Shown here: piece after piece, positions 3,491 through 30,354 of the stretch
How positions within the stretch are numbered: position 1 is the stretch's first letter
How the letters are laid out: every line of letters begins with the position of its first letter
From: a virus
Taxonomy: Duplodnaviria; Heunggongvirae; Uroviricota; Caudoviricetes
Strand: one strand, 5' to 3'
Virus record (IMG/VR): IMGVR_UViG_3300013121_000035
Location: 1-40,202 of that record
DNA length: 40,202 bases
Made by a program: the position numbers and the translations under genes
The notes under the pieces: model-generated
Seen by the model: only the letters and a program-made list of their open reading frames with translations
Told to the model about the DNA's origin: nothing
Databases searched by the model: none

Positions 3491-3514
3491 ATCTCGGCGC
3501 GTCCGCCATGCCAA
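3491..3514 (-). promoter_or_regulatory. putative sigma28/WhiG-like promoter TTGG-N12-GCCGAGAT
   Basis: Motif match in divergent intergenic region, upstream of the 3429 gene. Confidence 0.55.
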
Positions 3515-3538
3515 TTCGTCGGACTCCACCGCCGATGA
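3515..3538 (+). promoter_or_regulatory. putative sigma28/WhiG-like promoter TTCG-N12-GCCGATGA
   Basis: Motif match upstream of the 3597 gene. Confidence 0.6.
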
Positions 3539-3541
3539 CCA

Positions 3542-3561
3542 ACAACAACAGACAACAACAG
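3542..3561 (+). repeat. perfect 10-bp tandem repeat ACAACAACAG x2
   Basis: 3542-3551 and 3552-3561 identical, over the predicted transcription start. Confidence 0.8.
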
Positions 3562-3596
3562 AGCGCACCCGCTCGTCGACGATGAAAGGTGGAGAC

Positions 3597-3845
3597 ATGG
3601 CCGAACCCGACACCAACGGCGGCGAGCAGCAAGGGCTGGCCGCCCAGCTCGGCGACCGCCCCATCAGCGGCGTCTCACCATCCCCAGCCGTCGCACGCCC
3701 CGACCAGCCGGTCTTCCCCCCGCCGATCTTCGCGCCCATCGCCGAAGTCGTCGTGGACGAAAGCAAGGCCCCAGCACCCCAGGCGCCGGCCGACCAGCCA
3801 GCCGAGGAGCCACCCGCGCCAGTCCAAGCACGCCGCCGGCGCTGA
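3597..3845 (+). CDS. Pro/Ala-rich hypothetical protein
   Basis: RBS AAAGGTGGAG before ATG 3597. Confidence 0.6.
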   Translation: MAEPDTNGGEQQGLAAQLGDRPISGVSPSPAVARPDQPVFPPPIFAPIAEVVVDESKAPAPQAPADQPAEEPPAPVQARRRR

Positions 3846-3868
3846 ACCGCCCAGAGCGAGGAGGAACC

Positions 3869-4306
3869 ATGACCGACGCCAACATCACCGACAACGAGCC
3901 CACCAAGGGCGGCGACCCGATCCGTGCGCAGTTCGGCGACCTGGACGAGACCATCGAGCTCGTCCGGTTCGTCTTCAGCGACCCCGCCGCCGGCACCGGC
4001 TCCTACCAGAGCCGCGTCAACCACGCGCTCGTCGAGCGGTTCCCCGGCCACGCCGCCAACATCTTCGAGCTGTTCCAGGCCGTGGACAACAACGACGACG
4101 CCGCCAAGCGCCGCGCCGTCGCCCAGGTCGTCAACGCAATGGCCGACGACCCCAGCACCACCGGCGACGACAAGGAACACGACCGCAACTGGGGGCGGCT
4201 GGCCCGCCAGAACCCCTCCGCGGCGATCGCGCTGCTCGGCCTGGGCATCTCAGCGCGCATCAACCACGTCGAAGGCGTCAAGTGGGCGCCCGCTGACGAC
4301 ATCTGA
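3869..4306 (+). CDS. hypothetical protein
   Basis: RBS GAGGAGGA; strong codon bias; 145 aa; no family recognised. Confidence 0.75.
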   Translation: MTDANITDNEPTKGGDPIRAQFGDLDETIELVRFVFSDPAAGTGSYQSRVNHALVERFPGHAANIFELFQAVDNNDDAAKRRAVAQVVNAMADDPSTTGDDKEHDRNWGRLARQNPSAAIALLGLGISARINHVEGVKWAPADDI

Positions 4307-4396
4307 TCTTCGCGGCATCCGCCGCACCACCGCGGCCCTGCCGCACCCACCGCGGCCCCGTCTGCTCGGCGGGGCCGCTCGCATCTGCCTGAAGCG

Positions 4397-6013
4397 ATGA
4401 GCATCCGCCGCGCCCTGCCCCTGCCCCAACCCGGCGACGCCGCCCCGCTCGGCCCGGTCGTCGCCGCGGTCGTGCTGTGCCCACTGCTCGTCCTCGGCGC
4501 GTTCAGCCTGCCGCTCAACACCGCGCTCCAAGCCGCCCTGCCCTACCTGGTCGCGTTCGCCTGCGGCGGGGGCCTGCTGCTCGCCGCCTGCCTGCACTGG
4601 ATCGCGCGCACCATCGACGACGACCAGCTGGACTTCCTCGGCGTCGTCTACCTCCTGGCCGCCCTCGGGGTGCTGCTGCGCGGTGTCGTCCTGCCGCAAA
4701 CCAGCGCCATCGGCAACGCCACCATCATCGGCTCCACTGACGCGTCGGCGCTGCTGACCCTGCTGTGGCACGCGCTGATCCCCATCGGCGCCCTGCTCGT
4801 CCTCGGCCGCCACGCCGCCCGCTACGGCTGGGCGCCAACCCTCACCCTCGGGGTGTTCACCGGCGCGGTCATGATCGCCATGCTCCCCCTGGGCGGCCCC
4901 GACCTCGCCGACCCCAACGGCGTCAAGACCACCCTCGGGGTCACCCTGGCAGTCAGCGTCGGCGCCCTCAGCGCCCTCGCCGCCATCCTGTGGGTCCGCG
5001 CCGGCAACCGCCGCCCCTACGGTCCCGACCCGTGGATCGCCGCCAACCTCATCCTGGTCAGCGCCGGGGTCTTGCTGTGGGCCATCGCCGGCCCCCGCTA
5101 CAGCCCCCTGTGGTGGGCGTCGCAATGCTGCGACGCCCTGGCGTTCATCACCGCCGGCGCCGGCCAGCTCCAAGCCGTCGCCCGCTTCCAGACCGCGATG
5201 AACAACTACGTCGCCAGCCAGCAAGTCCTGCGCCGCGCCCAACCCCGGCCCAGCATCGAACTCAGCGACGCCAGCAGCCAGACCAGCCGCGACGCGATCG
5301 CCGCGCTGATCACCCACCCCGATCAGATCACCATGCTCGTCCAGCCCATCGTCGACCTCACCAGCGGCCGGGTCGCCGGCGCCGAAACCCTCGCCCGCTT
5401 CACCCCCGACCCCACCCAGCCGCCAACCGCCTGGTTCGACGCCGCCCACGCTGCCGGGCTGGCCAGCGACCTGGAACTGCTCTGCGCCCGCGCCGCCCTG
5501 ACCCACCTGGGCGCCCTACCCAACGACCTGTACCTGTCGATCAACCTCAGCCCCACCACCCTGGCCCAGATGCACTCCATCGCCGACACCTTCACCGTCA
5601 CCGGCCGCGACTGGCGCCGCATCGTCGTCGAAGTCACCGAACAGCAGCTCATCGACGACTTCGCCCACCTCGGCGACCTGTTCACCCCCGCCCGCGACCT
5701 CGGCGTCCGCCTGGCCATCGACGACCTCGGCAGCGGCCAAGCCGGCCTGCAGCACGTGCTGTACCTGCGACCCGAAGTCATCAAGATCGACCAGTCCATC
5801 GTCCAAGCGGTCGACACCGACCCCTACTGCCGCGCGCTGATCGCCAGCCTCGTCGCGTTCACCAGCGCGATCGGCGCCAGCCTCGTCGCCGAAGGTGTCG
5901 AGACCGCCGCGCAACACCGCACCCTGGTCAGCCTCGGCGTCAGCTACGGCCAAGGGTTCCGGCTCGGGCGCCCCATGCGCGTCGAAGACCTGCGCGTCCG
6001 CCTGCAACCCTGA
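4397..6013 (+). CDS. membrane-bound EAL-domain c-di-GMP phosphodiesterase (MASE4-like N-terminus)
   Basis: Multi-TM N-terminus (LLWHALIP, RYSPLWWASQ); QPIVDL, GAETLARF, SINLSP, EVTE, DDLGSG, IKID, AEGVET, GQGF: catalytic E/N/E/DD/K/E/Q retained. Confidence 0.92.
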   Translation: MSIRRALPLPQPGDAAPLGPVVAAVVLCPLLVLGAFSLPLNTALQAALPYLVAFACGGGLLLAACLHWIARTIDDDQLDFLGVVYLLAALGVLLRGVVLPQTSAIGNATIIGSTDASALLTLLWHALIPIGALLVLGRHAARYGWAPTLTLGVFTGAVMIAMLPLGGPDLADPNGVKTTLGVTLAVSVGALSALAAILWVRAGNRRPYGPDPWIAANLILVSAGVLLWAIAGPRYSPLWWASQCCDALAFITAGAGQLQAVARFQTAMNNYVASQQVLRRAQPRPSIELSDASSQTSRDAIAALITHPDQITMLVQPIVDLTSGRVAGAETLARFTPDPTQPPTAWFDAAHAAGLASDLELLCARAALTHLGALPNDLYLSINLSPTTLAQMHSIADTFTVTGRDWRRIVVEVTEQQLIDDFAHLGDLFTPARDLGVRLAIDDLGSGQAGLQHVLYLRPEVIKIDQSIVQAVDTDPYCRALIASLVAFTSAIGASLVAEGVETAAQHRTLVSLGVSYGQGFRLGRPMRVEDLRVRLQP

Positions 6014-6029
6014 CCGCCAAGGAGCCCAC

Positions 6030-6371
6030 ATGGCCTACATCGCGCTTGCGCTCATCCAAGTGCTCATCGCCGCCGCCTACGTCGTCATCGGCGTCAGCGT
6101 GCTACCCCGCGTGCGCTTTGGCGCCGTGGCCGCCATGCTCGCGCTCGGCTTCTTCCTGCTGTGCGCCGGCACCCACTTCGACCTCGCACGCCACACCGCC
6201 CAACGCAACGACCCCGACCTCATCGCCCCCCACATGTGGGCGTTGCACGTCAGCCAAGCCGTGATCGACTGGGCGTTCATCTTCGCGGTCCGCCGCTGGA
6301 AGATCGAGATCCGCCGCCGCCCCCCCGACGAGCGGCGCTGGCTGCGGTTCCTCGACGACGACCACGGCTAG
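6030..6371 (+). CDS. stand-alone 3-TM protein resembling the ETR1-type ethylene/copper-binding domain
   Basis: RBS AAGGAG; LIAAAYVVI, GFFLLCAGTH (CxxxH), ALHVSQAVI align with ETR1 FIAIAYFSI, AFIVLCGATH, TAKVLTAVV. Confidence 0.7.
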   Translation: MAYIALALIQVLIAAAYVVIGVSVLPRVRFGAVAAMLALGFFLLCAGTHFDLARHTAQRNDPDLIAPHMWALHVSQAVIDWAFIFAVRRWKIEIRRRPPDERRWLRFLDDDHG

Positions 6372-7381
6372 CTGACCTGCCATCCTGTCCGGCCGCGCTT
6401 GGCCGCGTACATCGCCCGGTCCGCCGCGGCCAGCAGCGCCGCTGGTGTGGCCCGCTGTGCCGAGGACAGCGCGACCCCCACACTCATCGACACCCGCACC
6501 TCCACCCCCGCCCGCACCGGCCGCTCCAACCGGGCCATCAACCGGCGAACCACCACCTGCGCGTGCTCCGGCGAGCTGTTCTCCAGCAGCATCGCGAACT
6601 CGTCGCCCCCCAGCCGCGCGGCCGAGTCCGATTCGCGCAACCCCACCCGCAACCGGCGGGCGACCTCCACCAGCACCCGGTCGCCGACCTGATGGCCGAA
6701 CGTGTCATTGATCCGCTTGAAGTCATCCACGTCGGCGTACAGCAACGCCACCGTCGCCCCGGTCCGCCGCGCGCGTGCCAGCGCGTGCTCCAGCCGGTCC
6801 TCGAACAGCGTGCGGGCCAGCAGCCCCGTCAACTGGTCAGTCAGCAGCGTCTCGTTGAACCGCCACGAGATCAGGTACGGCAAGTTGGTCAACCCCACGA
6901 ACGTCACCTGCGCGATCACCACGATCAGCGGCTGCTGCAACGCCCCATGCGCGTACAGCGTCGCCGGCGCGATGAGCGCCGCGCCGGCCAGGAACACCGC
7001 GTACGCGCCGATCGCCACCAGGCACGGCAGCCACGCCTGATACAACGTGACCATCCCGATCGTGGCGAAGAAGTGCAGATGCCACAGCCCACCACCACCG
7101 AGCACCACCAGCAGCGCGCTGGAGCCCACCAACGCCGTCGAGCCCAACGCCATCCGCGCCCGGCGTGACTGCGCCCAATTCGCGCCCGCCGCGAGCGCCG
7201 CCAGCGCCAACGCCTCAGCCACGCCCAGCCGTGCCCGCCCCGTCACCACCCCGACCGCGATCAGCAGGGCCACGTGCGCCCAGATCACCATCACGATCCC
7301 ACGGTGTCGTGCGAGCAGCGCGCTGGACGGCAACATCTGCCCGCGCGGCACAATCCTGCGCACGCGTGCCCGCCAAGACAC
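6368..7381 (-). CDS. membrane-bound diguanylate cyclase (GGDEF)
   Basis: RBS AGGAG; TM N-terminus; DQLTGL, DVDDFKRINDTFGHQVGD, I-site RESD, RLGGDEF (GGDEF at 6596-6610). Confidence 0.95.
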   Translation of the reverse strand: MSWRARVRRIVPRGQMLPSSALLARHRGIVMVIWAHVALLIAVGVVTGRARLGVAEALALAALAAGANWAQSRRARMALGSTALVGSSALLVVLGGGGLWHLHFFATIGMVTLYQAWLPCLVAIGAYAVFLAGAALIAPATLYAHGALQQPLIVVIAQVTFVGLTNLPYLISWRFNETLLTDQLTGLLARTLFEDRLEHALARARRTGATVALLYADVDDFKRINDTFGHQVGDRVLVEVARRLRVGLRESDSAARLGGDEFAMLLENSSPEHAQVVVRRLMARLERPVRAGVEVRVSMSVGVALSSAQRATPAALLAAADRAMYAAKRGRTGWQVS

Positions 7382-7480
7382 CGATCCGACTCCTCAACAG
7401 TGAGCTGGGAATACTATCGACCTGACACTTTTCGCATTCGATCGGCACAACGGCCACGCGGCACGGCGGGGGAGGGCGCA

Positions 7481-7594
7481 ATGCCAGCAGCGAAATGCCC
7501 ACCACACGCCAAACGGCTGCGTCGCACCGCACGCACCTGGGAATGCCCACGCTGCGGGGAGGTCCTCGCTACCCAGGAACAGCTGCGCATCTGA
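7481..7594 (+). CDS. small Zn-ribbon-like protein
   Basis: RBS GGAGGG; C-x2-H ... WECPRCG; 37 aa. Confidence 0.4.
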   Translation: MPAAKCPPHAKRLRRTARTWECPRCGEVLATQEQLRI

Positions 7595-7653
7595 CCCGCG
7601 CCAGCACTGGCAACGGCCGTTATCATTGCGCTCGGCGACTGGGGGGGAGCCGC

Positions 7654-7854
7654 ATGAACCGCACGCGCCTGCGCGACTACGACCCGCACGTCCACATCGA
7701 CCTGTCCTGCCCGCACTGCGGCGCCAGCGGTGAGCTGTGCGGCTACCTGTCCATCGTCGGGCGGGTCGTCGGCCACGTCAGGCGCATCCTGTGCGCTCAC
7801 CCCGAGGACCTCGACGTGCGCTGCCGATCCGACGAGCCGTTCAGCCTCAACTAA
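7654..7854 (+). CDS. small Cys-rich hypothetical protein
   Basis: GGGGGAG RBS; CPHCG motif. Confidence 0.5.
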   Translation: MNRTRLRDYDPHVHIDLSCPHCGASGELCGYLSIVGRVVGHVRRILCAHPEDLDVRCRSDEPFSLN

Positions 7855-7857
7855 CCA

Positions 7858-7881
7858 CTCGACAACCACCCCGGCCGAGCG
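7858..7881 (+). promoter_or_regulatory. putative sigma28/WhiG-like promoter CTCG-N12-GCCGAGCG
   Basis: Motif match, intergenic, upstream of lexA-like gene. Confidence 0.45.
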
Positions 7882-7914
7882 CTACCCTGACTTAGCTAAT
7901 TTGAGTTCAGACGG

Positions 7915-8196
7915 GTGATGGGAGCGACGATGCCAGCCGGGAGCCGCCAAGCCATGCTCGCGGCCGCCGCCGACCGGCGCGAGCAGATGCTCGACTACAT
8001 CGACACCTACCACCGCCACCACGGCTTCTCCCCATCCATCCCCGAGATCAGCCAGCACTTCAACATCTCCACCGGCGTCACCCGCCACCACCTGCTGCAC
8101 CTCGAACGCGAAGGACGGCTGCGCCGCACCCCCGGCGTCCACCGCTCCTTCCAAGTCATCCACACGCCTGGGGGGGCACATGCACCGCGACGATGA
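7915..8196 (+). CDS. LexA-type N-terminal DNA-binding domain protein without peptidase domain
   Basis: RREQMLDYIDTYHRHHGFSPSIPEISQHF...HHLLHLEREGRLRRTPGVHRSF follows LexA wHTH pattern; start may be 7918 or 7930. Confidence 0.75.
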   Translation: MMGATMPAGSRQAMLAAAADRREQMLDYIDTYHRHHGFSPSIPEISQHFNISTGVTRHHLLHLEREGRLRRTPGVHRSFQVIHTPGGAHAPRR

Positions 8197-8911: not shown

Positions 8912-9138
8912 TGGCCACCCGCGAGCAGCTCGCCGAGCTCATGGCCAGCCTCCAAGCCGCCCAACGCGCGTTCCGGGCCGCCGAACACGCGCGCACCGTG
9001 ACACTGGCCGCACGCAACGACGCGATCCTGGCTGCCGCCAACGCCGGGTTCGTCTACGACGACCTCGCCGCCCTCACCGGCCTCAGCGAACCTCGCATCG
9101 CGCAGATCGTCACCCGCGGCAGGAGTCTCACCGACTAA
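8911..9138 (+). CDS. small HTH DNA-binding protein
   Basis: RNDAILAAANAGFVYDDLAALTGLSEPRIAQIV. Confidence 0.65.
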   Translation: MATREQLAELMASLQAAQRAFRAAEHARTVTLAARNDAILAAANAGFVYDDLAALTGLSEPRIAQIVTRGRSLTD

Positions 9139-9170
9139 CAAGCCGGCCCCGGAAAGCCGACACAACGGAC

Positions 9171-9530: not shown

Positions 9531-9584
9531 AAACAGCGCATCCGTCGAGCGACCCCCCTGCCCGGCGGGTCATCCCCCATGCAC

Positions 9585-9609
9585 CGGCCCCCGACCCGCT
9601 CGGGGGCCG
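9585..9609. terminator. hairpin at early/late boundary
   Basis: CGGCCCCCGA / TCGGGGGCCG 10-bp stem followed by ATGTATTTCT. Confidence 0.5.
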
Positions 9610-9757
9610 ATGTATTTCTGATGCGAAAACACCCGCTCCCGTCCATTTCCTGCGCACCCGTTCTGACCAGTCCAAACGCCAGGTTCCTGGCGCGGATTTG
9701 TCACCACCAGACCTGCTAGCTTCACCCCATGACAAACCGCGAATCGGGGGGGGCGCG

Positions 9758-11055: not shown

Positions 11056-11462
11056 ACGCCCTCATCGAACCGGCCGTAGCGATCGCCCTGCTCGCCTGCG
11101 TCGTCGGTGCGCTGTGCGCCGCGTTCATCCTCCACGTCGCCATCCTCCACAACCACCCCCCCTCGCCGCTGGCAACGGCCGTCAGCAGAGTCGCGCGCAC
11201 CGTCGCCCGCCAGGTCGCCGGCGACACCAGCGAGATCCCCGTCGCCGAGGCCGACACCATCGAACAGCCCTCGGTCAAAGGCGAGCTCGTCGCCGACACC
11301 GAAGGGCGCTGGTTCACCATCCACGAAGCCGACCTGCGCCACGCGCTGGCTGCTACGTTCGAGGAGCACCTGCATCCCGACAACGCGCTGCGCCAACTCA
11401 CCAAGCACGCCCTCATCCACCACCAGCGCCCCGCCAAGCGCCGGAAAGGAGGCACCCGATGA
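11052..11462 (+). CDS. hypothetical membrane-anchored protein
   Basis: N-terminal hydrophobic helix; overlaps neighbours by 4 nt. Confidence 0.6.
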   Translation: MNALIEPAVAIALLACVVGALCAAFILHVAILHNHPPSPLATAVSRVARTVARQVAGDTSEIPVAEADTIEQPSVKGELVADTEGRWFTIHEADLRHALAATFEEHLHPDNALRQLTKHALIHHQRPAKRRKGGTR

Positions 11463-14056
11463 GCGTCACCGTCACCCTGGAGGAGGAGGAGCTGTACCTC
11501 GCCGCCCTCTTGGACGACCCCAGCGGCCTGGACCTCGCCGAGTTCTGCTGGCTGGACGAAGAAGCCGACGACGGGTGCTTTCGCGCCTGGGACTACCAGT
11601 GGGCCTGGTGGCGCAACGACGACCCCTACCAGATCGACCAGGCCGGCCGGTCACTGGGCAAGAGCGTGGGCATTACCATGCGCGCGTTCGCCTTCCCCTT
11701 CAAAGCGCCCGGCCAGGAGATGCTCGTCACCGCGCCGGAGCTCAACCACCTGCGCCCCCTCACCGACCAGATCGAACACCGGCTCACCACCACCCGCCTC
11801 ACTCGCGAGCTGCTCCCCGCCGTCAAAGGCATGGGCATCGCCAGGCAGCCGCACTTCCAGGTCCGTTTCACGAACAATGCTCGCATCATTACCAGACTTC
11901 CCAATAAGGACGGTAAGGGAGTCAAGGGGTCGATGGCCGCCGGGGCCATCGTGCTCACTCGGAACGGCCTGAAACCGATTGAGGATGTCGTACCTGGTGA
12001 CGAGGTTCTCACCCACATGAACCGCTGGCGGCGGGTACTGGACAACATCCGCTCCGACGCTGATGTCGACCTCATCGACGTCGCTGGCGGCGGCAACCGC
12101 AGCCTAGTCATGTCCTGGAACCACCGGATGTTCGGTCGACGCAACCGCAACCCGCAGCGCACCCGGCGGCTTTCGCCGATCAACTGGGTCATTGCCGACG
12201 ACCCAGAACTGGGCGACCGCTGGTACTTCGGCTCGCCGACCACCTTCCCCAGCGAGCCGCTGCCAGCAACGCCCGTCGCCGACATCGAGGCGCTGCTTGC
12301 ACTCGCTGGCGCCTATGTCGCCGACGGCAACCAGGGCGTCAACCGGATCGCGCTCACCGACGACGTCGATGAGGTACCACGTCTGCTTGCCCTCGCTGAA
12401 GCGGTGGGTTGCACCGCGCACGCCTACGACAAGGCCGTGGGTTCCCGGGCGCGCACAGTCGAGATCTACGGCAAGGCTGTCGCCAACTGGTTGTTGGAGC
12501 ACTTCGGCCAGTACGCCGCGGGTAAGCGGCTGCCGGTCTGGCTGCTCGGTGCGGAGGAGCGCTACCGCAAGGCGTTCTTATACACCTATCTCGCAGGGGA
12601 CGGTCACTGGAGTCCAGTCAAGCGGCGCTGGGAACTGTCGACCGCCTCCAAGCCACTCGCCGTTGGTCTCCGCCTGCTCGGCCAGAGCCTCGGTTACCAG
12701 GGCAGTCTCTCGTGGACTGACCCGAAGCCCAACCAGGTGAGCCCCGCACCGCAACGTTCCTGGCGCGTACAACTCACCGATCACGGCCACGCCCAACTGC
12801 TCGATGGCATCTTGTGGACTAAGGTCCGTGCAGCCACCGAGAGCGGTCGCGGTGTGGTCTACAGCATGGTTGTTGAAGGTGACGAGTCCTACATCGCGGA
12901 CGGACTGATCAGCCATAACCAACACCCCATTCATCTCGAAATGGACGAAGCCCAGGACTACCCTCTCGCTGGCTGGGTGGAGCTGATCGAAACGCTCAAG
13001 CGCGGCAGCAAAGGGTTCACGTGGCGCTGCCACGGCGTCTCCCGCGGGGTGCGCGACAAGTTCTACGAGCTCACCCAGGAATCCTCCGGGTGGACCGTCC
13101 ACCGGCTCACCGCCGTGCACCGGCCGACCTGGGACGACGCGGAGCGCCAAGCCAAGATCCGCGAGTACGGCGGCAGTCGCGACAACCCCGACTACAAGCG
13201 CAACATCTTCGGCGAGCACGGTGATGCGACCAACCCGCTGTTCGTTCTTGCCCGCCTGATGGCGATCGTGCGCCAGGACGCCGAGTACAACGACGACATC
13301 TACGCCTGCCGCAAGATCAGCTACGAGCTGGTCGCCAACGCCGGCACCCCCATCCAGACGTTCCTGGACCTGCCCGGCAGCCATCTCGCCGGCTACAGCG
13401 GCTACTACGGCGGGATGGACGTCGGGTTCACCGCCGACCCCTCCGAGATCCTGGTGTTCGGCGAGCAGGTGAAGACCGGCAAGCTGCGGCTGCTGACCCG
13501 CATCCAGCTCGCCCGCGTCCACGCCGCCGACCAGCGGCGCGTCATCACCGCCCTGTTCGACTTCTACGGCGCCAAGCTGCGCCGGTTCGCGATGGACAAG
13601 ACCGGGCTGGGCCTGCCGATCTGGCAGGACATGCTCACCGAGCCGATCAGCGGCGCCAACGACCGGGTCATCGGCTACAACTTCTCCGGCCTGTATCCCG
13701 TCGAGGTCGAAGACCGCCCGCTGAAACCCGGCGAGAAGCCCGCGGACCTGGTCATCAAGAAGAACATCAAGGACTGGTCGTCTGACCAGCTGCGCCACTG
13801 GGTTGACCAGCGTGTCCTGGAGCTCCCGTTCGACCGGGAGCTGCTCAGCGAATGGCAGGGGCAGAGCTACTCGGTCGCCCCGCAGGCCGGCAACCCGTAT
13901 GGGCGGCGCAGCTACTCCGCCGGCTCCTACCACACCCTGGACGCGGGACGGATGTTCGCCGCCGCCAAGGGCTTGGAAGCGATCGAGGCGATGCTCGCCA
14001 AGCCGGTGGCCACCGAAGGCCCCGTCCTGGACGTGTTCGTCGGCGCCGGGTACTGA
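11459..14056 (+). CDS. terL: terminase large subunit, intein-containing
   Basis: RBS AAAGGAGG; Walker A QAGRSLGKS, Walker B IHLEMDE, nuclease motifs GGMDVG, MDKTGLG, HTLDA; 865 aa, 535 aa without intein. Confidence 0.92.
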   Translation: MSVTVTLEEEELYLAALLDDPSGLDLAEFCWLDEEADDGCFRAWDYQWAWWRNDDPYQIDQAGRSLGKSVGITMRAFAFPFKAPGQEMLVTAPELNHLRPLTDQIEHRLTTTRLTRELLPAVKGMGIARQPHFQVRFTNNARIITRLPNKDGKGVKGSMAAGAIVLTRNGLKPIEDVVPGDEVLTHMNRWRRVLDNIRSDADVDLIDVAGGGNRSLVMSWNHRMFGRRNRNPQRTRRLSPINWVIADDPELGDRWYFGSPTTFPSEPLPATPVADIEALLALAGAYVADGNQGVNRIALTDDVDEVPRLLALAEAVGCTAHAYDKAVGSRARTVEIYGKAVANWLLEHFGQYAAGKRLPVWLLGAEERYRKAFLYTYLAGDGHWSPVKRRWELSTASKPLAVGLRLLGQSLGYQGSLSWTDPKPNQVSPAPQRSWRVQLTDHGHAQLLDGILWTKVRAATESGRGVVYSMVVEGDESYIADGLISHNQHPIHLEMDEAQDYPLAGWVELIETLKRGSKGFTWRCHGVSRGVRDKFYELTQESSGWTVHRLTAVHRPTWDDAERQAKIREYGGSRDNPDYKRNIFGEHGDATNPLFVLARLMAIVRQDAEYNDDIYACRKISYELVANAGTPIQTFLDLPGSHLAGYSGYYGGMDVGFTADPSEILVFGEQVKTGKLRLLTRIQLARVHAADQRRVITALFDFYGAKLRRFAMDKTGLGLPIWQDMLTEPISGANDRVIGYNFSGLYPVEVEDRPLKPGEKPADLVIKKNIKDWSSDQLRHWVDQRVLELPFDRELLSEWQGQSYSVAPQAGNPYGRRSYSAGSYHTLDAGRMFAAAKGLEAIEAMLAKPVATEGPVLDVFVGAGY
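11930..12919 (+). mobile_element. intein with LAGLIDADG homing endonuclease (330 aa)
   Basis: SMAAGAIVLTRNGLKPIEDVVPGDEVLTH, block B SWNH, AGAYVADG, YLAGDG, VYSMVVEGDESYIADGLISHN; codon usage differs from flanks. Confidence 0.92.
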
Positions 14057-14076
14057 CCCAACCTCCGGACACCAAA

Positions 14077-14102
14077 CGACCCGGGCCAACCGGCCCGGGT
14101 CG
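14077..14102 (+). terminator. hairpin after terL
   Basis: CGACCCGGGCC / GGCCCGGGTCG 11-bp stem, AACC loop. Confidence 0.55.
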
Positions 14103-14198
14103 ATGGTGGCAAAGCACGCACTCCCAGCGAAGCCCCCACTCCGCGTCACACAAGCTGAAGCGTACTAAACCGCGCGAGCCAGGCGCAACTCGTCGGGC

Positions 14199-14750: not shown

Positions 14751-16426
14751 CCACCCGGCCGGCGCACAGCGTCCTGATCGAAACCGACGGGTGGCTGCGT
14801 CCCCTGGAAGTCTGGAACGAATCCGGGCTGGACGACTCCACCGTCATGCGCCACCTGCCGGTGGAGCAGGCCGCCGCGGAGATCATGCGCTGGACCAGCG
14901 AGCAGCGCAGCACCCGCGGCGGTGGGTCCATGTTCGCCCGCAACACCTTCGTGGCCAGCGACAACCCGTATGAGCAGATGCGCATCGCCCGCGACGCGAT
15001 GCGTGACGACGTCGTCGGCGGCGTCGCGGACATCACCGAGGCGTTGGCGTTCCAGCGGGTCGGCTGGGAAGCCGGCGAAGAAGACGAAGTCGACGTGTTC
15101 AACCAGCTTGCCCGCGACCTGAACCTCGACGACTTCGTCCGCAAGGTCTGGCGGGAGCTGTACACCTACTCCCAGACGGTCGTGGCGACCTGGTGGGCGG
15201 TGCGCACCTACCGGGTCCGCGGCGAAAGCGACACCGGCGTCAAGCGCAAGAAGGAGTACACGCTGCTCGCGCCGACCGCGGTCAGCGTCCTTGACCCCAC
15301 CAAGATCGTCCCGGTCGGCAACCCGCTGTTCGGCCAGGAACGGCTGTGCTGGATCGGCACCGAAGAAGAACTCCGCGCCTTCCGCGGGGTGGGCGCCAAC
15401 GGCACCGCCGACCCCACGCTCGCGCCGGACGCGCTCATGGACCGGCTGCTGCTCGGCCAGTACACCCCGTCGCGCAGCGAAGCCGAATGGCTCACCGATC
15501 TGGGGGTCGACCCTGACCGGCTGTTGGAGTTCGACCCGCGTTACACCTGGCGGCACACCCTGACCCGCCCGGACTACCAGCGGTTCCCTGATGTGCGCCT
15601 GGCCGACACGTTTCGCCATCTGGACCTCAAACGCCAGCTCATGGACGCCGACCGGGTCCAGCTCGTCGGCGCCGCCAACTACATCCTGCTCATCAAGAAA
15701 GGCACCGACGCCCACCCCGGCCAGCCAGTGGAGATCGAGAACCTGCGGGAGAACTACTCGGTGCTGGCCAAGCTCCCGGTGATCATCGGCGACCACCGGC
15801 TGTCGATCGAGATCATCACCCCCAAGCTGGACACCACCCTGCAAAGCGGCCGCTACGACCTGCTCGACCGGCGCATCCGCGAACGCTGCATCGGCACGTT
15901 CACCCTCACCGACCGTGCCGACAAGAGCCTGCTGCAAGGCCGGGTGATCGCCCGGCTGATCGAATCGCGCCGCTGGATGATCAAGCGCACCGTCGAGGCG
16001 CGCATCGGACGGATGATCACCGAAGCCAACCCTGACCAGCTCACCAGCGAACCCAACCTGATCTACCGGCCCCGCAACGTCGCGCTCGAAGTCGACCCGG
16101 CTGTCATCGAAGCGCTGCTCAAGCTGCGCACGATGGGGGAGCTGTCGCGCGAAACCGAGCTGGAGGAGCTCGGCTTCGACCAGGACGTCGAAGCCCAACG
16201 GCGCAAGATCGAGGAGCGCCGCTACGACGCCACGTTCCGCTCCGCCGTGCCGCACTCCAGCCCCGCGACCAACCCGATCGGCCCGCCCGCCCAAGGCCAA
16301 CAAGGCCAACAAGGGCAAGGCCAGCAGGGCCAGCAGCAGGGCGCTGATCCCAACCCGCAGGTCGAACCGCGACCCAACGTCAACCGCGGCCGCCCGCGCA
16401 TCAACCCCAAGCCTGAGCAGCCATGA
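14747..16426 (+). CDS. portal protein
   Basis: 559 aa, position after terL; Gln/Gly-rich tail near 16292-16342; function mainly from synteny and size. Confidence 0.7.
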   Translation: MTTRPAHSVLIETDGWLRPLEVWNESGLDDSTVMRHLPVEQAAAEIMRWTSEQRSTRGGGSMFARNTFVASDNPYEQMRIARDAMRDDVVGGVADITEALAFQRVGWEAGEEDEVDVFNQLARDLNLDDFVRKVWRELYTYSQTVVATWWAVRTYRVRGESDTGVKRKKEYTLLAPTAVSVLDPTKIVPVGNPLFGQERLCWIGTEEELRAFRGVGANGTADPTLAPDALMDRLLLGQYTPSRSEAEWLTDLGVDPDRLLEFDPRYTWRHTLTRPDYQRFPDVRLADTFRHLDLKRQLMDADRVQLVGAANYILLIKKGTDAHPGQPVEIENLRENYSVLAKLPVIIGDHRLSIEIITPKLDTTLQSGRYDLLDRRIRERCIGTFTLTDRADKSLLQGRVIARLIESRRWMIKRTVEARIGRMITEANPDQLTSEPNLIYRPRNVALEVDPAVIEALLKLRTMGELSRETELEELGFDQDVEAQRRKIEERRYDATFRSAVPHSSPATNPIGPPAQGQQGQQGQGQQGQQQGADPNPQVEPRPNVNRGRPRINPKPEQP

Positions 16427-17474: not shown

Positions 17475-18016
17475 GCGTCTTCGAGCACATCCAACGCCGC
17501 GCCCACCCCAACGCCTGGGACCACATCGCCCCAGGTGACATCGGCTATGACCGCGGAGGCGGCTTCGTTGGCTGGGCAATCGGCGTGTTCACCCGCACCG
17601 CCCAATCCCACTGCTACATCTACGTCGAACCCGGCGACGGCAGCTACTGGTGGACCCACGAGGCCCGCGGCGGCGGCCCACTCACCAAGTGCCGGCGCAC
17701 CCAGCCACCCAACAAGGTCCACCGCATCTGGCGCAACCGCGCCGAAGCCCAAGCCATCATCGCCGCCTCTGGGGACCTGCTGGGCCGCGGCTACGACTAC
17801 CGCGAGATCGTGCGGATCTGCCTGACCATGCTCGGCCTGCCCGTGCTTCGCGCCAAGGACAACGCCGGCAAGGTCATCTGCTCCAACCACGTCGCCCAGT
17901 GCGTCCAAGCCGCCCGGCCCGACATCCCGCTCAGCTACGAGCCCCACTCGATCTGGCCCGGCCGCCTGGCCGAAGACCTCGACGAGGCGACCTGGACCGA
18001 CGCTACGGCCCGTTGA
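17471..18016 (+). CDS. permuted papain-like NlpC/P60 peptidase (YiiX/YebB-like)
   Basis: PGD, SH, GRGYD, ICS with His preceding Cys. Confidence 0.75.
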   Translation: MSVFEHIQRRAHPNAWDHIAPGDIGYDRGGGFVGWAIGVFTRTAQSHCYIYVEPGDGSYWWTHEARGGGPLTKCRRTQPPNKVHRIWRNRAEAQAIIAASGDLLGRGYDYREIVRICLTMLGLPVLRAKDNAGKVICSNHVAQCVQAARPDIPLSYEPHSIWPGRLAEDLDEATWTDATAR

Positions 18017-18040
18017 TTCACCCTCGCGCCTGGCCGACAG
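18017..18040 (+). promoter_or_regulatory. putative sigma28/WhiG-like promoter TTCA-N12-GCCGACAG
   Basis: Motif match in the 58-nt gap before 18075. Confidence 0.6.
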
Positions 18041-18074: not shown

Positions 18075-18419
18075 GTGCCCAAGCCAGCCACGCTCAACTT
18101 GGAGCTCTACCAGGGCGACTACTTCGAGCTGGCCGTCACGCTCTACGAGGTCGACGGGACCACCCCCAGGAACCTGACGGGCATGACGCCACGCGCCCAG
18201 GTTCGCACCACCGCGGAGGACTCCACCGTCCTGTTGGAGTTCGATATCACCATCGACGACGACCCCACCACCGGCCAGCTCACCCTCAGCGCCGCGTCCG
18301 CGCAGACCGCGCTGCTGCCCAAGAAGGCCGTGTGGGACTTCCAGCTCACCGACGCCGGCGACCGCACCCGCACCTACCTGCGCGGCAGTGTGGTGGCCAC
18401 CCGCGAGGTCACCCGCTGA
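18075..18419 (+). CDS. virion structural adaptor (LtfC/BppU-N-like), paralogue 1
   Basis: [25 protein letters not shown]; paralogous to 25502-25867. Confidence 0.7.
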
Positions 18420-19453: not shown

Positions 19454-20145
19454 GCACCGACGAGTACCTCCACCGCAGCGTCGACCCCGAGACCGGCGAC
19501 GAGCAGGTCACCTGGACCGAGGTCGCCTCCGGCCCCCAAGGCGACCCCGGCCCCCAAGGCGACCCCGGCCCCCAAGGCGACCCCGGCCCGCCGGGGTCGG
19601 ATGCCACCAGCGCGTGGGTGCCACTGGGGGAGATCCTGCTGACCAGCAACGCCCAGCACACCGACTGGATCACCATCGACCCAGGCGGTGGCGGCACCGA
19701 CACCTACGAGGAGTTCCTGGTCTTTTGCGACTACACCGTCGGCTCCGGTGATCGCATGATGCTGCAGTTCAACGGGGACGTCGGCCAGAACTACTACGTG
19801 CGGTTCTTGTCCTCAGTCGCCGGCAGCGGCGGCAGCAGCACCACCCAGATCGGCCCCGAGTCCGGCATCCACCTGGCGCCCTGGTTCATCGCGCTGCGCC
19901 AGTCGTGCCTGCTGCACATCTCCAACACCAGCTTGCGGCAGAAGAAGGTCGCGTTCCTGGCGTGCAACCAGGAAACCGCGACCGACGCCACCTTCCCGAC
20001 GCTGGTCACCGCCGGCGAAGGCCACTGGCCCAATGCCAGCCGCATCTACCAGATGCGCCTGCAGACGTTCAACAACCAGTACGCGACCGCGCCGATCCGC
20101 ATCGTCGTCTCCGGCCGCAGCCGGATCAGCCGCACCGCCCCATGA
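19450..20145 (+). CDS. short collagen-like fibre/receptor-binding protein
   Basis: GPQGDP x3 then beta-rich domain. Confidence 0.7.
19531..19584 (+). repeat. perfect 18-bp tandem repeat GGCCCCCAAGGCGACCCC x3
   Basis: Three identical copies encoding GPQGDP. Confidence 0.9.
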
Positions 20146-21662: not shown

Positions 21663-21688
21663 CCACCCCCCGCGGCCTCGCAGCTCAA

Positions 21689-21712
21689 TTCCTCAGCCCC
21701 GCCTGGCGAGAC
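21689..21712 (+). promoter_or_regulatory. degenerate copy of promoter motif TTCC-N12-GGCGAGAC
   Basis: One mismatch per box, same spacing, upstream of scaffold-capsid genes. Confidence 0.35.
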
Positions 21713-21805: not shown

Positions 21806-22390
21806 GTGGCCGAGCGCACCTTCACGGAGGAGCAGTTCAACACGCTGCTCGAAGCGACGGTCGAGCGCGAGGTGGCGGCGGCCAACGAGAAGATCGCCGC
21901 GTTGGAGCAGGCGAATGCTGACCTGCAGGAGAAGGTGGCCACCACGGTCACCGACACCGACAAGGTCAAGCAGGACCTGACCCAGCGGGTCGACACCCTC
22001 GAAGCCGAGAAGCTCGCCGCCCAAGCCGACCGCGACCGCATCCAGGCCGAATTCGACCAGTTCAAGGCGGACGCAACCGCCAAGGAGCAGGCCGCAGCCC
22101 GCCGCGACGCCCGCGTCGCCGAGATGCGCGAGGCCGCCAAGGGCCTCAAGGACGACTATTTCACCGCCGAGCGGGCCGACCGCTGGGCGCAGCTGGACGA
22201 CGAGGCGTTCTCCGCCCACAAGGCCGAGCTCGCCGCGATCGCCGGCGCGCTCACCCCGGCCGGAGACGACACCAAGCCACCGCGGGAGACCGCGATGGCC
22301 GGTCAGACCCCCAAGCCCAAGGACTCCGAGCAGCCAAGCGCCCTGTCGCGGCTGCTGTTCGGCGCCCCGACCCCCGCGCGGGAGGTGTAA
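21806..22390 (+). CDS. scaffolding-like coiled-coil protein
   Basis: RBS GGGAGGA; long charged coiled coil; position. Confidence 0.6.
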   Translation: MAERTFTEEQFNTLLEATVEREVAAANEKIAALEQANADLQEKVATTVTDTDKVKQDLTQRVDTLEAEKLAAQADRDRIQAEFDQFKADATAKEQAAARRDARVAEMREAAKGLKDDYFTAERADRWAQLDDEAFSAHKAELAAIAGALTPAGDDTKPPRETAMAGQTPKPKDSEQPSALSRLLFGAPTPAREV

Positions 22391-23930: not shown

Positions 23931-23933
23931 TAA

Positions 23934-24022: not shown

Positions 24023-24026
24023 ACGT

Positions 24027-24170
24027 TCACGGATCGTCGCGTTGGATCTCGACGTCTCGCGGCGCGGTGATCCCCACTCGGACCTGCCCGCCGCGCACCT
24101 CCAGCACGGTCACGACCACATCCGGCCCGATCGTCAGGCTCTCGCCGACCCGGCGGGTGAGGACAAGCAC
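24027..24170 (-). CDS. csrA: CsrA/RsmA RNA-binding translational regulator, 47 aa (not in ORF track)
   Basis: RBS GGGAGG, GTG; [47 protein letters not shown] aligns without gaps to E. coli CsrA 1-47 including R44. Confidence 0.9.
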
Positions 24171-24183
24171 GGCAACCTCCCTG

Positions 24184-24573: not shown

Positions 24574-24595
24574 ATCGGTCGCGGCGTCGACTGCA

Positions 24596-24619
24596 TTCAG
24601 TCCTCGCGGCTGCCGAGGG
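24596..24619 (+). promoter_or_regulatory. putative sigma28/WhiG-like promoter TTCA-N12-GCCGAGGG
   Basis: Motif match upstream of 24661. Confidence 0.6.
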
Positions 24620-24660
24620 ACCAGCAGGTAGGAACAGGACCTGAGCGAGTAGGAGCACCA

Positions 24661-25164: not shown

Positions 25165-25182
25165 CCCAAGGAGGAGGGTGTC

Positions 25183-25407: not shown

Positions 25408-25438
25408 GCTTCGCGCCACACCGCTGCTCCCGGTCGAT

Positions 25439-25461
25439 TTCGACCCTCCCGCCGCCGACCT
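25439..25461 (+). promoter_or_regulatory. putative promoter TTCG-N11-GCCGACCT
   Basis: Near match, spacer 1 nt shorter, upstream of 25502. Confidence 0.45.
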
Positions 25462-25501
25462 CCAGTGAGGAGAGCGACAGCGGCGGGAGGCGGAGCGGCG
25501 C

Positions 25502-25867
25502 GTGGCAGCACCACCTGTGAGCAGCGACCTGGAAATCATGCAGGGCGCTGACCTGTCGTTGCTGGTCACCTACACCGACGACGACGGTGAGCCGTTCGAC
25601 CTGACCGGCTGGACCGCGCGGATGCAGGTGCGCGGCAGCTACAACGACACCAGCGCCGCGATCGACATCTCCACCACCCCCAACGACCAGGGCCGCATCG
25701 ACATCGACCTGCCCACCGGCACCCTGGCCGTGGCGATCGTCGCGGCCGCGACCGCGACCGTCACCCGCGAACGCAACGTGTGGGACCTGTTCGTCTACGG
25801 CCCCGCCGGCCAGGTCGAAACGCTGGTTCGCGGTGAGGCCACGCTGCTGCGGCGGGTGACCCGATGA
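25502..25867 (+). CDS. virion structural adaptor (LtfC/BppU-N-like), paralogue 2
   Basis: IMQGAD, DLTGWTARMQVR, VWD, RRVTR. Confidence 0.7.
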   Translation: MAAPPVSSDLEIMQGADLSLLVTYTDDDGEPFDLTGWTARMQVRGSYNDTSAAIDISTTPNDQGRIDIDLPTGTLAVAIVAAATATVTRERNVWDLFVYGPAGQVETLVRGEATLLRRVTR

Positions 25868-26160: not shown

Positions 26161-26170
26161 AGGAGGCGAT

Positions 26171-27373: not shown

Positions 27374-29841
27374 GCCGCAAGTTCCTGTCCGTCCTCGAAG
27401 CGCCCGGCTACCCCGGCGTCGCCCAAGACGTCCTCGCGCAGTCCTACCACCACCACAACGACAACCTGGTCTACAACTCCAGCTTCGAGATCCCCGACCC
27501 CGCTGATGTCACCAAACCGCACGGGTGGAAGTGCTACAGCGTCGCCGGGCCGATCACCTGGGGCTTGCAGACCACCGCCGCCAACCTTCGCTCAGGGTTC
27601 CGCTCGGCCTACATGACCATCGGTGACGGCACCGGGTCGCTGCGGATCTCCAGCGAAGGCGCCAAGTTCCCCGTCGCCACCGGCGAGCAGCTGTGGGCAT
27701 CCGTCTGGTACCAGACCTCCAGCTCCTTCACCGGCAACGCCGTGCTGCCAAGCGTGCTGTGGTGGGACAGCGTCGGGGCTTTCCTGTCTTCTAATGGTCT
27801 TGGCAGCTACAGCGCGAGCACCACCGGCGCCCGCGCCGCCGCGCTCGTCACCCCACCCGCAGGCGCGGTCAACGCGTCCATTCAGGTGCAGTTCCACGGC
27901 CCCGACATCTCCGGCGGCAGCCCCACCTACCCGCTCACCATCTACATCGACGACGCCATCCTGGTCCGCGCGGACGGGCCGACCAGCTACGCGACGGCGC
28001 GCACCCTCGGCACCGGGTCCACCCAGGCCGCCGCCGGTGACCACGGTCACAGTCAGCTGGTCGCCCCGCTGCTGGTGGTCAACAACGGTGCCATCAGCGT
28101 CGTCCCCGTCGCCGTCAAGGGTGTCTCCGGGCAGACCGGGGACCTCCAACAGTGGCAGGACTCCACCGGCGCGGTCCGAGCCCGCATCAGCAACCTCGGC
28201 TCCCTCGCCGTCACCAACGGCACCAGCGACACGGCCAGCATCGACGGGTCGGTGGGCTACTTCCGCGGCGCTGGCATCACCAAGGCTGACAACACCGGCG
28301 GGTATGTGACCCTGGACGGGGCAGGTGCCGCCGGCCACGGTGTGGTCGTGCGCGGTCGCACGACCAACCAGACCACGCTCGTGGTTCGTCCCGTGGCCGC
28401 CCAGAGCGCGGACCTGCAGCAGTGGGTGAACGACACTGCCGGGTCGGTTCTGGCCAAGGTGACCAAGGACGGCATCGCGGATGTCGCTGGCCTGCTGATC
28501 GGCGGCCAGGCCCTGCTCGGCCAGGCCGCCACGCAAGCGGCGCCCGGCAACCACCCCCACAACTTCGACGACAACCTCGTCATGAACGGCGGGTTCGAGG
28601 TTGCCAGCCCCACCGACGCGACCAAGCCGTTCGCGTGGATCGGGACTGTCGGCGCCGGCTCACCCACCTGGGGCCTGAACACCGCCGCCGCGAACCTGCT
28701 CAGTGGCACCAAGTCCTGTTACATCACTATCACCGCCGGCACCGACCACCTGAAGATCACCAGCGACTCAGCCAAGTTCCCCTGCACCACCGGGGAGATT
28801 CTGTGGGCGCAGCTGCGCGTGAAGACCTCCGCGGTCTACACCGGCAACGGCGTGCGCAGCTACATCGACTGGGAAGACGCCAGCGGCGCGTACCTGTCGT
28901 CCACGGTCATTGGGCAGATCCCCGGTGACACCAACTGGGGGCAGATGCAGGCGCTGGTCACCCCGCCCGCCAACGCCACCCAGGGCAGCTTCATGGTCCA
29001 GCACTACGGGCCGAACATCACCGGCAGCCCGACCTATCCGCTGACGCTGTACATCGACGCGTGCACCGTCACTCGTGCGATCACCGACCAGCGGGTCGCT
29101 GCCGCGAACAAGGACGGCGTCGCCGGCACCGCGTCCATGCGCACCATCGGGACCGGCGCGACTCAGGCCGCCGCCGGGAACCACACGCACACCGCGGCTG
29201 CGGGCTCGATGAACTTCGATTCAGCGCAGGAGACCACCTACCAGGTCCAGCAGGAATTCGACGTTGCGACCAGCTTCGGCAGCCCCGCCAACGGGATGGG
29301 CACCGGCTGGACCTCGGTCGGGTCGCTCGCCAGCGCGTACCGCGAAACGTCCGTTGGCCAGTTCGAGAACGGCTCCGCGCAGTCAACGACCGCGATTCTC
29401 GGCTACATCTACACACTCACCACCAGCCAGGACTTCGCCGCCTACTTGAAGATCCCCCGCTACGGCCCCGCCGCCGCCGGGCTGTGCTACGGGGTGCTGG
29501 TCCGCGACTCCACCAAGTACTACGCGTTCGTCTACGACGACGCCGACCAGACCATCAAGGTCAAATACTTCACCAACGCCACCACCTTCTCCACCAACAA
29601 GTTCACGTCCGCGGCGCTGACGATCAGCCGCCCGGACATGTTCAAGATCACCCGCGCGACCAGCGTGTGGACCTGCTGGGTCGGGATCGAAGGCATGTGG
29701 GTGAAGGTCTGCGACGCCCAGACGTTCAGCGACCTCAACAACAGCCCCGGCTCGATCGGGTTCGGGTTCACCTTCCAGTCGGGCACCAACCTGGTCGCCA
29801 ACGCCCACCGGGTCGGCTGCGACTACGTGCGGGTGATGTGA
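27370..29841 (+). CDS. fibre/receptor-binding protein with two carbohydrate-binding-like repeats
   Basis: Internal repeats NLVxNxxFE...GSPTYPLTxYID; three TQAAxGxHxH motifs; beta-rich C-terminus. Confidence 0.75.
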   Translation: MSRKFLSVLEAPGYPGVAQDVLAQSYHHHNDNLVYNSSFEIPDPADVTKPHGWKCYSVAGPITWGLQTTAANLRSGFRSAYMTIGDGTGSLRISSEGAKFPVATGEQLWASVWYQTSSSFTGNAVLPSVLWWDSVGAFLSSNGLGSYSASTTGARAAALVTPPAGAVNASIQVQFHGPDISGGSPTYPLTIYIDDAILVRADGPTSYATARTLGTGSTQAAAGDHGHSQLVAPLLVVNNGAISVVPVAVKGVSGQTGDLQQWQDSTGAVRARISNLGSLAVTNGTSDTASIDGSVGYFRGAGITKADNTGGYVTLDGAGAAGHGVVVRGRTTNQTTLVVRPVAAQSADLQQWVNDTAGSVLAKVTKDGIADVAGLLIGGQALLGQAATQAAPGNHPHNFDDNLVMNGGFEVASPTDATKPFAWIGTVGAGSPTWGLNTAAANLLSGTKSCYITITAGTDHLKITSDSAKFPCTTGEILWAQLRVKTSAVYTGNGVRSYIDWEDASGAYLSSTVIGQIPGDTNWGQMQALVTPPANATQGSFMVQHYGPNITGSPTYPLTLYIDACTVTRAITDQRVAAANKDGVAGTASMRTIGTGATQAAAGNHTHTAAAGSMNFDSAQETTYQVQQEFDVATSFGSPANGMGTGWTSVGSLASAYRETSVGQFENGSAQSTTAILGYIYTLTTSQDFAAYLKIPRYGPAAAGLCYGVLVRDSTKYYAFVYDDADQTIKVKYFTNATTFSTNKFTSAALTISRPDMFKITRATSVWTCWVGIEGMWVKVCDAQTFSDLNNSPGSIGFGFTFQSGTNLVANAHRVGCDYVRVM

Positions 29842-30329
29842 TGAACGAAAGCACCGTCCAGCTCGAAGCCTACAAAGCAGACGTCAACAAGCACGGCGGG
29901 TTCTGCGTCAACAAGGCGGCCAACGACCAGACCGGCATCGTCGCCAACACCTGGACCCAGGTCACCTGGTCCCAGGAGGAGTTCGACACCAACGGCAGCT
30001 TCGACCTGCCCAACAACCGGATGCTGGTCCCCACCGGCCAGGGCGGCTTGTGGCTGGTCGGCGCCCACGGCTATGTCGCCGGCCAGCCAACCTCGGGCAC
30101 CTGGGACGCCAACATGGCCCTGTACAAGAACGGGTCCATCTACCACCGGCTCGCCCTGCCCAACTTCAACATCAACAGCTCCGAGGGCCTGGGCGGCAGC
30201 GTCTTGCTCAACACCGTCGCCGGTGACTACTACGAGCTGTACATCCACATGAACCCCGTCAACAGCTCCGGCACCCTGCGCGGCAACACCGACTGGACCT
30301 ACTTCTGGGGCGTGCGGCTTGGGCCGTGA
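29841..30329 (+). CDS. C1q/TNF-like domain protein
   Basis: WTQVTWSQEEFDTNGSFD, GLWLV, LYKNG, AGDYYELY. Confidence 0.65.
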   Translation: MNESTVQLEAYKADVNKHGGFCVNKAANDQTGIVANTWTQVTWSQEEFDTNGSFDLPNNRMLVPTGQGGLWLVGAHGYVAGQPTSGTWDANMALYKNGSIYHRLALPNFNINSSEGLGGSVLLNTVAGDYYELYIHMNPVNSSGTLRGNTDWTYFWGVRLGP

Positions 30330-30330
30330 G

Positions 30331-30354
30331 TTGAGCCGCGCCGCCTGCCGATAG
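30331..30354 (+). promoter_or_regulatory. putative sigma28/WhiG-like promoter TTGA-N12-GCCGATAG
   Basis: Best match to sigma28 -10 GCCGATAA; 7 nt before a GTG lacking an RBS. Confidence 0.65.

Follow-up and report, generated by a model that had tools for sequence, protein, structure and literature searches.

Sigma factors of the sigma-28 class, the flagellar and sporulation factors FliA and WhiG, read promoters whose consensus in E. coli is TAAAGTTT-n11-GCCGATAA (PMC2859248). In actinobacteria the consensus of the WhiG2 clade is T(A/C)AA-N16-GCCGATAA, and that of the flagellar, Actinoplanes-type WhiG1 is CTCA-N16-17-GCCGAACT; the central CGA is the most conserved part of the WhiG -10 box, its last three bases are variable, and WhiG-type promoters are often found upstream of cyclic di-GMP (c-di-GMP) enzymes (bioRxiv 10.64898/2026.01.14.699351). 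In the Pseudomonas sigma-28 open complex, determined by cryogenic electron microscopy with a fliC box, the element runs (-15)GCCGATAA(-8), only -11A is flipped, and position -7 is not read (PMC12784957). WhiG itself is under second-messenger control in actinobacteria, where c-di-GMP arms RsiG to sequester it (PMC7005675, PMC8325347). How actinobacterial phages control their late genes is poorly understood. Here we analyze a repeated intergenic motif in bases 1-40202 (the window, 40,202 nt) of the 104,202-bp IMG/VR record IMGVR_UViG_3300013121_000035, a Caudoviricetes phage (hereafter G000) from a lineage without a cultured member. An original prediction, made from the window sequence, described the motif as YTSR-N12-GCCGA at intergenic unit starts. 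Our analysis makes it probable that the motif represents sigma-28-class (FliA/WhiG-type) promoters serving the presumed late virion units and a unit encoding an EAL-domain protein in a temperate actinobacterial phage.

The six exact sites of the original prediction, at 3515 (+), 3514 (-), 7858, 18017, 24596, and 30331, were all present with the strands assigned to them, as were two near matches, one at 25439 with a spacer one base short and one at 21689 that reads GGCGA. All eight are intergenic and face a gene according to our gene calls, with the start codon 11-97 nt downstream. Counting YTSR-N12-GCCGA over the whole window is a weak test, with 12 matches against 6.3 expected and 12 reached in 2 of 100 shuffles; the six window matches that had not been predicted all lie within genes and all start with CT. 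Genome-wide, 7 of 17 matches fall in intergenic DNA, which makes up 10.4% of G000, and the five that start with TT are all intergenic. Upstream DNA that faces a gene contains seven matches against 0.76 expected, a number reached in none of 1000 dinucleotide shuffles of those regions, and a blind Gibbs sampler applied to 29 upstream regions recovered the same alignment and added variant sites near 33364 and 46771, so the intergenic enrichment that had been proposed as a check was indeed found. The T-containing upstream element appears as a positional signal as well: among gene-facing intergenic GCCGA words in G000, T is found 15 bases upstream of the G in 13 of 29 (p 3e-5), and under the same condition in 44 non-redundant relatives it is found at -16 in 45 of 133 (p 8e-5) and at -15 in 51 of 133 (p 5e-7), with a weaker enrichment at -20. 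No such T peak is present where GCCGA lies within genes or faces away from them. These results confirm that the motif is real. Other approaches were uninformative: exact spaced-dyad counts in the full set of upstream regions yielded nothing but GC-rich noise, k-mer enrichment in the upstream DNA of relatives mainly returned stop-codon words and pieces of tRNA, and some regular-expression matches in relatives were discounted as tRNA T-loops (GGTTCGA...) or Shine-Dalgarno overlaps (GCCGAGGAGG).

Relatives were found through the large terminase (TerL) in 55 IMG/VR loci, with TerL identity of 37-59% and GC content of 50-71%, and the closest large ones, G001 (86 kb) and G002 (70 kb), were retrieved whole. 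Both are syntenic with G000 at 30-55% protein identity, a divergence at which intergenic DNA can otherwise not be aligned. In the two relatives, the intergenic sites that face a gene have the form (g)TCAGTT(C/G), N12-13, GCCGAT, and G001 has seven of them against 0.27 expected. In the comparison of the three genomes the motif recurs 5′ of the orthologues of the G000 genes at 30362, 33488, 21806, and 25517. For gene 21806 it stands upstream of 36448, the orthologue in G002, and of 19972, the positional orthologue in G001, and for gene 33488 clear sites lie upstream of the orthologues at G001 32535 and G002 50885. The G002 orthologue of gene 25517, at 42633, shows CAGTTC, N13, GTCGAT, N9, and GTG, in the geometry of a leaderless start; for gene 24661 the G001 site, at 22127, lies one small gene upstream of the orthologue. 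When a two-block matrix trained on ten G001 and G002 sites only was used to score about 208,000 positions of G000, the two best matches were 30331 (22.3 bits) and 3515 (20.6 bits), the next match scoring 14.0 bits.

Alignment of 19 sites from the three genomes gave the consensus tcA(g/a)TTc, N13, GCCGAT. In the -10 box CGA is present in 19 of 19 sites, GCCGA in 16, and the following T in 12; weak conservation after GCCGA is expected because position -7 is not read by sigma-28. At a spacing of N16 the upstream positions are T in 9 of 19, C in 10, A in 13, and A or G in 18. These bases, at -20 to -17, occupy the position of the actinobacterial WhiG -35 element, and the match is one at the level of the consensus, since 21689 is the only G000 site that meets the exact published criteria. 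The E. coli TAAAGTTT register was rejected for the -35 element, as it places AGTT 2 bp nearer the -10 box, and T(A/C)AA-N16 was preferred. The best-conserved upstream bases are the TT at -16/-15, outside the published -35 box. The original prediction was right that the upstream box is not the classical TAAA-N15, but the YTSR box (-16 to -13) forms the 3′ flank of the longer element T-C-A-R-T-T-S and is not the -35 element itself. Its view that the second box resembles the sigma-28/FliA/WhiG -10 element is supported by the conservation at orthologues, a spike in start-codon positions, and the FliA/WhiG sigma factors encoded by relatives (both below). The sites of the lineage resemble sigma-28/WhiG promoters in the -10 sequence GCCGA(T), with its invariant CGA and variable last bases, in a consensus T-C-A-R at exactly N16, in an inferred start 15 nt after the G, and in the placement of one of them 5′ of a unit for a c-di-GMP enzyme. 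They differ in their phage setting 5′ of virion genes, in the extra TT, in a -35 element whose fourth base is often G, and in the degeneracy of the G000 copies, and their starts are predicted from sequence.

The distance from the -10 box to the start codon provides a further point of comparison. Among 1259 genes of G000 and its relatives, the numbers of start codons 14/15 nt after the first base of [GT]CCGA are 11/18, against about 5 at other offsets, and after CCGAT they are 6/14, against about 1.5. Some offset-14 cases are Shine-Dalgarno overlaps of the kind noted above; the others, including several TerL genes of relatives, have no ribosome-binding site. The spike at 14-15 nt equals the published sigma-28 geometry, so the predicted +1 would be the first base of the start codon and the mRNA would be leaderless. 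At 30347-30354, GCCGATAG is followed by seven bases and then by the GTG at 30362, 15 nt after the G of the box, which implies a leaderless mRNA as predicted from this layout; the original prediction had placed the start 6-8 nt past the 8-nt box, and the predicted position coincides with this GTG. The exact 15-nt spacing occurs at G000 30362, G001 29861, and G002 48158, and the choice of start codon is supported because the proteins of G000 30362 and its G001 orthologue align from residue 1. Outside the window the same geometry is found at 46771 (GTG 46786) and 68395 (-), whereas the predicted leaders at the remaining sites are 27-100 nt. Leaderless mRNAs with A/GTG starts are common in Mycobacterium and Streptomyces, and the start codons of the G000 lineage resemble them in lying at the predicted +1 with no Shine-Dalgarno sequence; they differ in having a -10 box of the sigma-28 type upstream instead of TANNNT. 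A sigma-28-family holoenzyme would read GCCGA(T) as extended -10/-10, with GC as the extended -10 and A as the flipped -11 base, would read T-C-A-R-T-T-S, 16 bases upstream, as the -35 region, and would begin transcription about 15 nt after the G of GCCGA, which at 30362 is the first base of GTG.

Seven records of relatives encode a FliA/WhiG sigma factor. Six of these (G001, G006, G007, G008, and G011/G012) score above the cut-off of the TIGR02479 FliA_WhiG model, and in G014 the gene is split and scores just below it. The two CheckV near-complete records, G007 and G008, each bear the sigma gene, and G008 is complete with terminal repeats. The G001 protein (62712-63458, 248 residues) scores 229.6 bits against a TIGR02479 cut-off of 189.6 and 1e-81 with the WhiG model; its closest named cellular homologues are WhiG/FliA of Acidimicrobiia and other Actinomycetota, at 50-55% identity, and no homologue was found among the isolated actinophages of the phage collection. 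G000 retains the stretch that corresponds by synteny to the G001 sigma gene (~62-65 kb), but it is occupied by HNH-domain and amidase genes instead, and Pfam scans of G000 62-74 kb gave no sigma; the G002 record stops short of the expected sigma-gene region. Many relatives provide the sigma from a phage gene of their own, and G000 probably relies on the WhiG/FliA of its host, because its relatives carry their own sigma and it does not. Late promoters that work with a phage-encoded sigma factor are known from SPO1 (gp33/34), T4 (gp55), and phiEco32 (gp36). The sites of the G000 lineage are like these in forming a distinct class confined to the late/structural module, and the sigma gene of the relatives belongs to the replication/middle block, as would suit a temporal cascade. 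They are unlike them in that the sigma of the relatives is a FliA/WhiG member nearest host WhiG rather than one of a phage-specific family, and in that G000 has no sigma gene at all. A search of the literature turned up no account of WhiG/FliA sigma factors carried by phages or of phage late promoters of the sigma-28 type.

The individual G000 sites differ in strength. The strongest promoter candidate is TGAGTTG, N13, GCCGATAG (30327..30354, +), which ranks first with the relatives' matrix, followed at rank 2 by CCAATTC, N13, GCCGATGA (3511..3538, +), with a predicted start at ~3546. The latter, the 3515 site, heads the unit 3597-6371, which includes the EAL phosphodiesterase gene. It is divergent from CGAATTG, N13, GCCGAGAT (3491..3518, -; rank 30), which faces gene 3429-3118, and the two have the palindromic AATT core of the -35 region in common. 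The candidate (C)TCAATTC, N13, GGCGAGAC (21685..21712, +; rank 8), 5′ of 21806, fits exactly both search patterns from the literature, T(A/C)AA-N16 and CTCA-N17, in which one of the first two -10 bases may be mismatched. TTGATTC, N13, GCCGACAG (18013..18040, +; rank 14) has the tail-fibre module from 18075 downstream, and TGCATTC, N13, GCCGAGGG (24592..24619, +; rank 43) lies 5′ of 24661. A weak or variant candidate, TCGATTT, N12, GCCGACCT (25434..25461, +; rank 420), lies 5′ of 25517. The predicted list of sites therefore holds for 30331, 3515, 21689, 18017, 3514 (-), and 24596, all within the top 43, and weakly for 25439. The remaining site, CTCG-N12-GCCGAGCG (7854..7881, +), 5′ of the LexA-like helix-turn-helix gene 7930, is doubtful: at rank 1999 it is only in the top 1% with the relatives' matrix, the motif is absent upstream of the G001 orthologue 9783, and we rejected it as a member of the family and consider it probably a chance match.

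Two further sites were added. The variant TGAAATC, N13, GCCGAAGG (33344..33371, +), found by the Gibbs sampler upstream of gene 33488, scores low with the relatives' matrix because TT is absent. From 33364 to 33430, GCCGAAGG is followed by CCAAGAGG and then GTG, a layout like that of a G001 promoter and ribosome-binding site; the GTG frame ends after 13 codons, and the called gene 33488 is in a different frame. The short frame could be an upstream mini open reading frame (ORF), a frameshift, or a sequencing error. A tentative new candidate, TAAC, N16, GCCGACAC (9136..9163, +), has no TT box and a low matrix score, and possibly has the 15-nt geometry, with ATG 9171 standing 15 nt after the G at 9156. 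Site 25439 is overlapped by an 11-bp inverted repeat, CCTCCCGCCGC ... GCGGCGGGAGG (25446-25490), which covers the -10 box and the predicted start. The genes behind the 18017 and 25439 sites, 18075-18419 and 25517-25867 (+), are paralogues of the tail-fibre-assembly-like family phrog_1084; each heads a tail-fibre-like module with a motif site 5′ of it, which suggests a duplicated module.

Several observations weigh against assigning these sites to a sigma-28 factor. The G000 sites are more degenerate than those of the relatives, with T after GCCGA in only 2 of 7; the published exact-match -35 criteria are met only by 21689 in G000 and by a few G002 sites; and the TT at -16/-15 has no counterpart, at that register, in any sigma-28 consensus that has been published. 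No site precedes several of the structural-module unit starts, such as 14057-14198, 9531-9757, and 34853-34985. No sigma gene was detected in G000 with Pfam r2, r4, and r4_2, with tblastn using three phage sigmas, or with a profile built from these three, and the record is linear and may cut a gene at its right end, so that a small piece could be missing.

The last two points bear on whether the sites are real promoters read by a factor that the phage itself supplies, whether a divergent sigma, a sigma-retargeting protein, or a WhiG-like gene missing from the record. The sigma genes of the seven relatives, the near-complete G007 and G008 among them, speak for this, as do the lack of end repeats, a right end that may cut an open frame, and the many G000 proteins, most of the total, without a family assignment. 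We nevertheless consider it unlikely, as CheckV gives the record a completeness of 100%, no sigma gene is found in the G000 counterpart of the G001 sigma region although that counterpart is intact in the record, and the sensitive searches of G000 revealed no sigma remnant. Less probable still is the proposal that the host principal sigma (HrdB/SigA type) reads an unusual -10 box and that the likeness to sigma-28 is coincidental. Actinobacterial housekeeping promoters do have weak -35 elements, and the A conserved at hexamer position 2 is present in GATAGC at 30331, but the T at position 6 (-7) that defines TANNNT is not conserved and 13 nt, not 16-18, separate TTS from the hexamer. A scan of the 40-kb window for sigma-70-type consensus promoters gave no match, the few clear sigma-70-like promoters of G000 lie at 72 kb and 98 kb in early/immunity regions and look different, and the relatives encode factors of the sigma-28 type.

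The separate palindrome AACGGCCGTT that adjoins some G001 sites and the inverted repeat at 25439 could suggest that the motif is instead an operator bound by a phage regulator, or some other intergenic element without promoter function. Yet the motif lacks symmetry, points in every case in the direction of the downstream gene, consists of two parts whose spacing changes by one base, and stands at a fixed 15-nt distance from start codons that have no ribosome-binding site. Each of these properties is typical of promoters, which leaves an operator very improbable. Least probable of all is that the motif arises by chance from a GC-rich composition in which GCCGA is common and T-containing words are concentrated in intergenic DNA. 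The whole-window count is indeed only about twice the expectation, and 7858 and the six genic matches look random, but shuffles of intergenic DNA never reach the observed count, the relatives' matrix independently ranks 30331 and 3515 as the top two, and the position of the motif is conserved across diverged genomes.

The reading of the sites as sigma-28-class promoters has a possible connection to c-di-GMP. The unit behind the 3515 site contains the gene for an EAL-domain membrane protein (4397-6013, +; Pfam 6.6e-45) and a small membrane-like ORF (6030-6371, +), and the gene for a GGDEF-domain protein (6368-7291, -; Pfam 2.7e-45) converges on it. The EAL and GGDEF genes were absent from the five relatives checked, namely the sigma-bearing G001, G006, G007, and G008 and the sequenced part of G002. 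It is conceivable, if rather doubtful, that the WhiG-like sigma gene of the lineage has been replaced in G000 by c-di-GMP control of the host factor. The 3515 promoter would drive the EAL unit, c-di-GMP would fall, and host WhiG would be freed from an RsiG-type anti-sigma; the freed WhiG would fire the EAL unit, in positive feedback, together with all virion promoters, and the GGDEF cyclase would keep the system silent at earlier stages of infection or during lysogeny. The distribution of genes fits such a circuit, although the sample is tiny: G000 has EAL and GGDEF genes without a sigma, and four relatives have a sigma without either enzyme. The parallel with the RsiG-(c-di-GMP)-WhiG switch is that the switch ties the availability of the sigma class of the G000 promoters to the c-di-GMP level and that G000 carries genes for both enzymes; the difference is that a host RsiG and WhiG, the activity of the phage EAL and GGDEF proteins, and their effect on WhiG availability are hypothetical here. 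Upstream of the GGDEF gene, at 7411-7420 (-), GTCGATAGTAT contains a sigma-28-like -10 variant, GTCGATAG, for which TCGAATG lies 13 nt upstream, together with a TAGTAT of the housekeeping type that overlaps this variant, and it could be a dual promoter for the cyclase gene.

The WhiG/FliA class of flagellar and sporulation sigma factors appears to be used for phage virion genes, and a known promoter class and sigma family probably serve late genes across an uncultivated actinophage lineage. Our data yield a testable lineage-wide promoter model, T-C-A-R-T-T-S, N13, GCCGA(T), with a start 15 nt after the G and often leaderless, and the motif helps to delimit transcription units and to identify true start codons when related metagenomic phages are annotated. 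Most relatives bring a phage-borne sigma, whereas G000 has c-di-GMP enzymes and no sigma, and this contrast makes a link between phage development and host c-di-GMP-WhiG control directly testable.

The G000 record has a GC content of 68.5% and about 173 genes according to our own codon-bias gene caller, and it is linear with no end repeats. From 1 to 50 kb nearly all genes are on the + strand and encode virion proteins, among them collagen-like tail fibres, decoration-like proteins, and a 2096-residue tape-measure-like protein. A WhiB gene (59359-59562), a large serine recombinase (serine integrase; 70629-72092, -), and other gene content, to which an amidase lysin belongs, are the basis on which we conclude that the phage is temperate and that its host is almost certainly within the Actinomycetota; the named proteins most similar to the EAL domain also come mostly from this phylum. 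Searches for closer relatives or a host gave little: 8 kb of the window had no megablast match among isolated phages, a search of bacterial genomes with TerL for prophage relatives found none, a search with the EAL protein gave a single uninformative match and no host genus, and the sole match of the portal protein in the phage collection was a mangrove-soil metagenome contig. The large terminase (11459-14056, +) has 865 residues, compared with 543 in G001, 887 in G002, and ~530 codons for the tblastn matches in most other relatives, and the additional ~320 residues look like an intein-type insertion.

The window also encodes two small helix-turn-helix regulators, one MerR/HTH_17-like (1969-2184, +), with a fold common to BldC and excisionases, and the other with a LexA-type DNA-binding domain (7930-8196, +). 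A 47-codon member of the CsrA family (24027-24170, -; Pfam 1.1e-20) lies antisense to the structural module; CsrA is linked to flagellar regulation in Gram-positive bacteria. In G001 and G002 a 10-nt unit (AATCGAGCAG-like) is repeated three times in tandem 5′ of the orthologues of gene 14199, at G001 ~14900-14960 (L056) and G002 ~31430-31470 (L062), and it is absent from G000. The palindrome AACGGCCGTT, a candidate operator for a phage regulator, lies in intergenic DNA near gene starts at 1875 and 7613 in the window and at 67473, 76933, and 82492 elsewhere in G000, with an identical 18-mer, CACTGGCAACGGCCGTTA, at 7613 and 67473. In G001 it is found at 14889, 19852, 19881, and 84594, two copies standing directly upstream of the promoter site at 19900. 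A long stretch without a gene call in the middle of the tail module, 31296-31782, resembles coding DNA in parts and is possibly a free-standing or degraded small gene.

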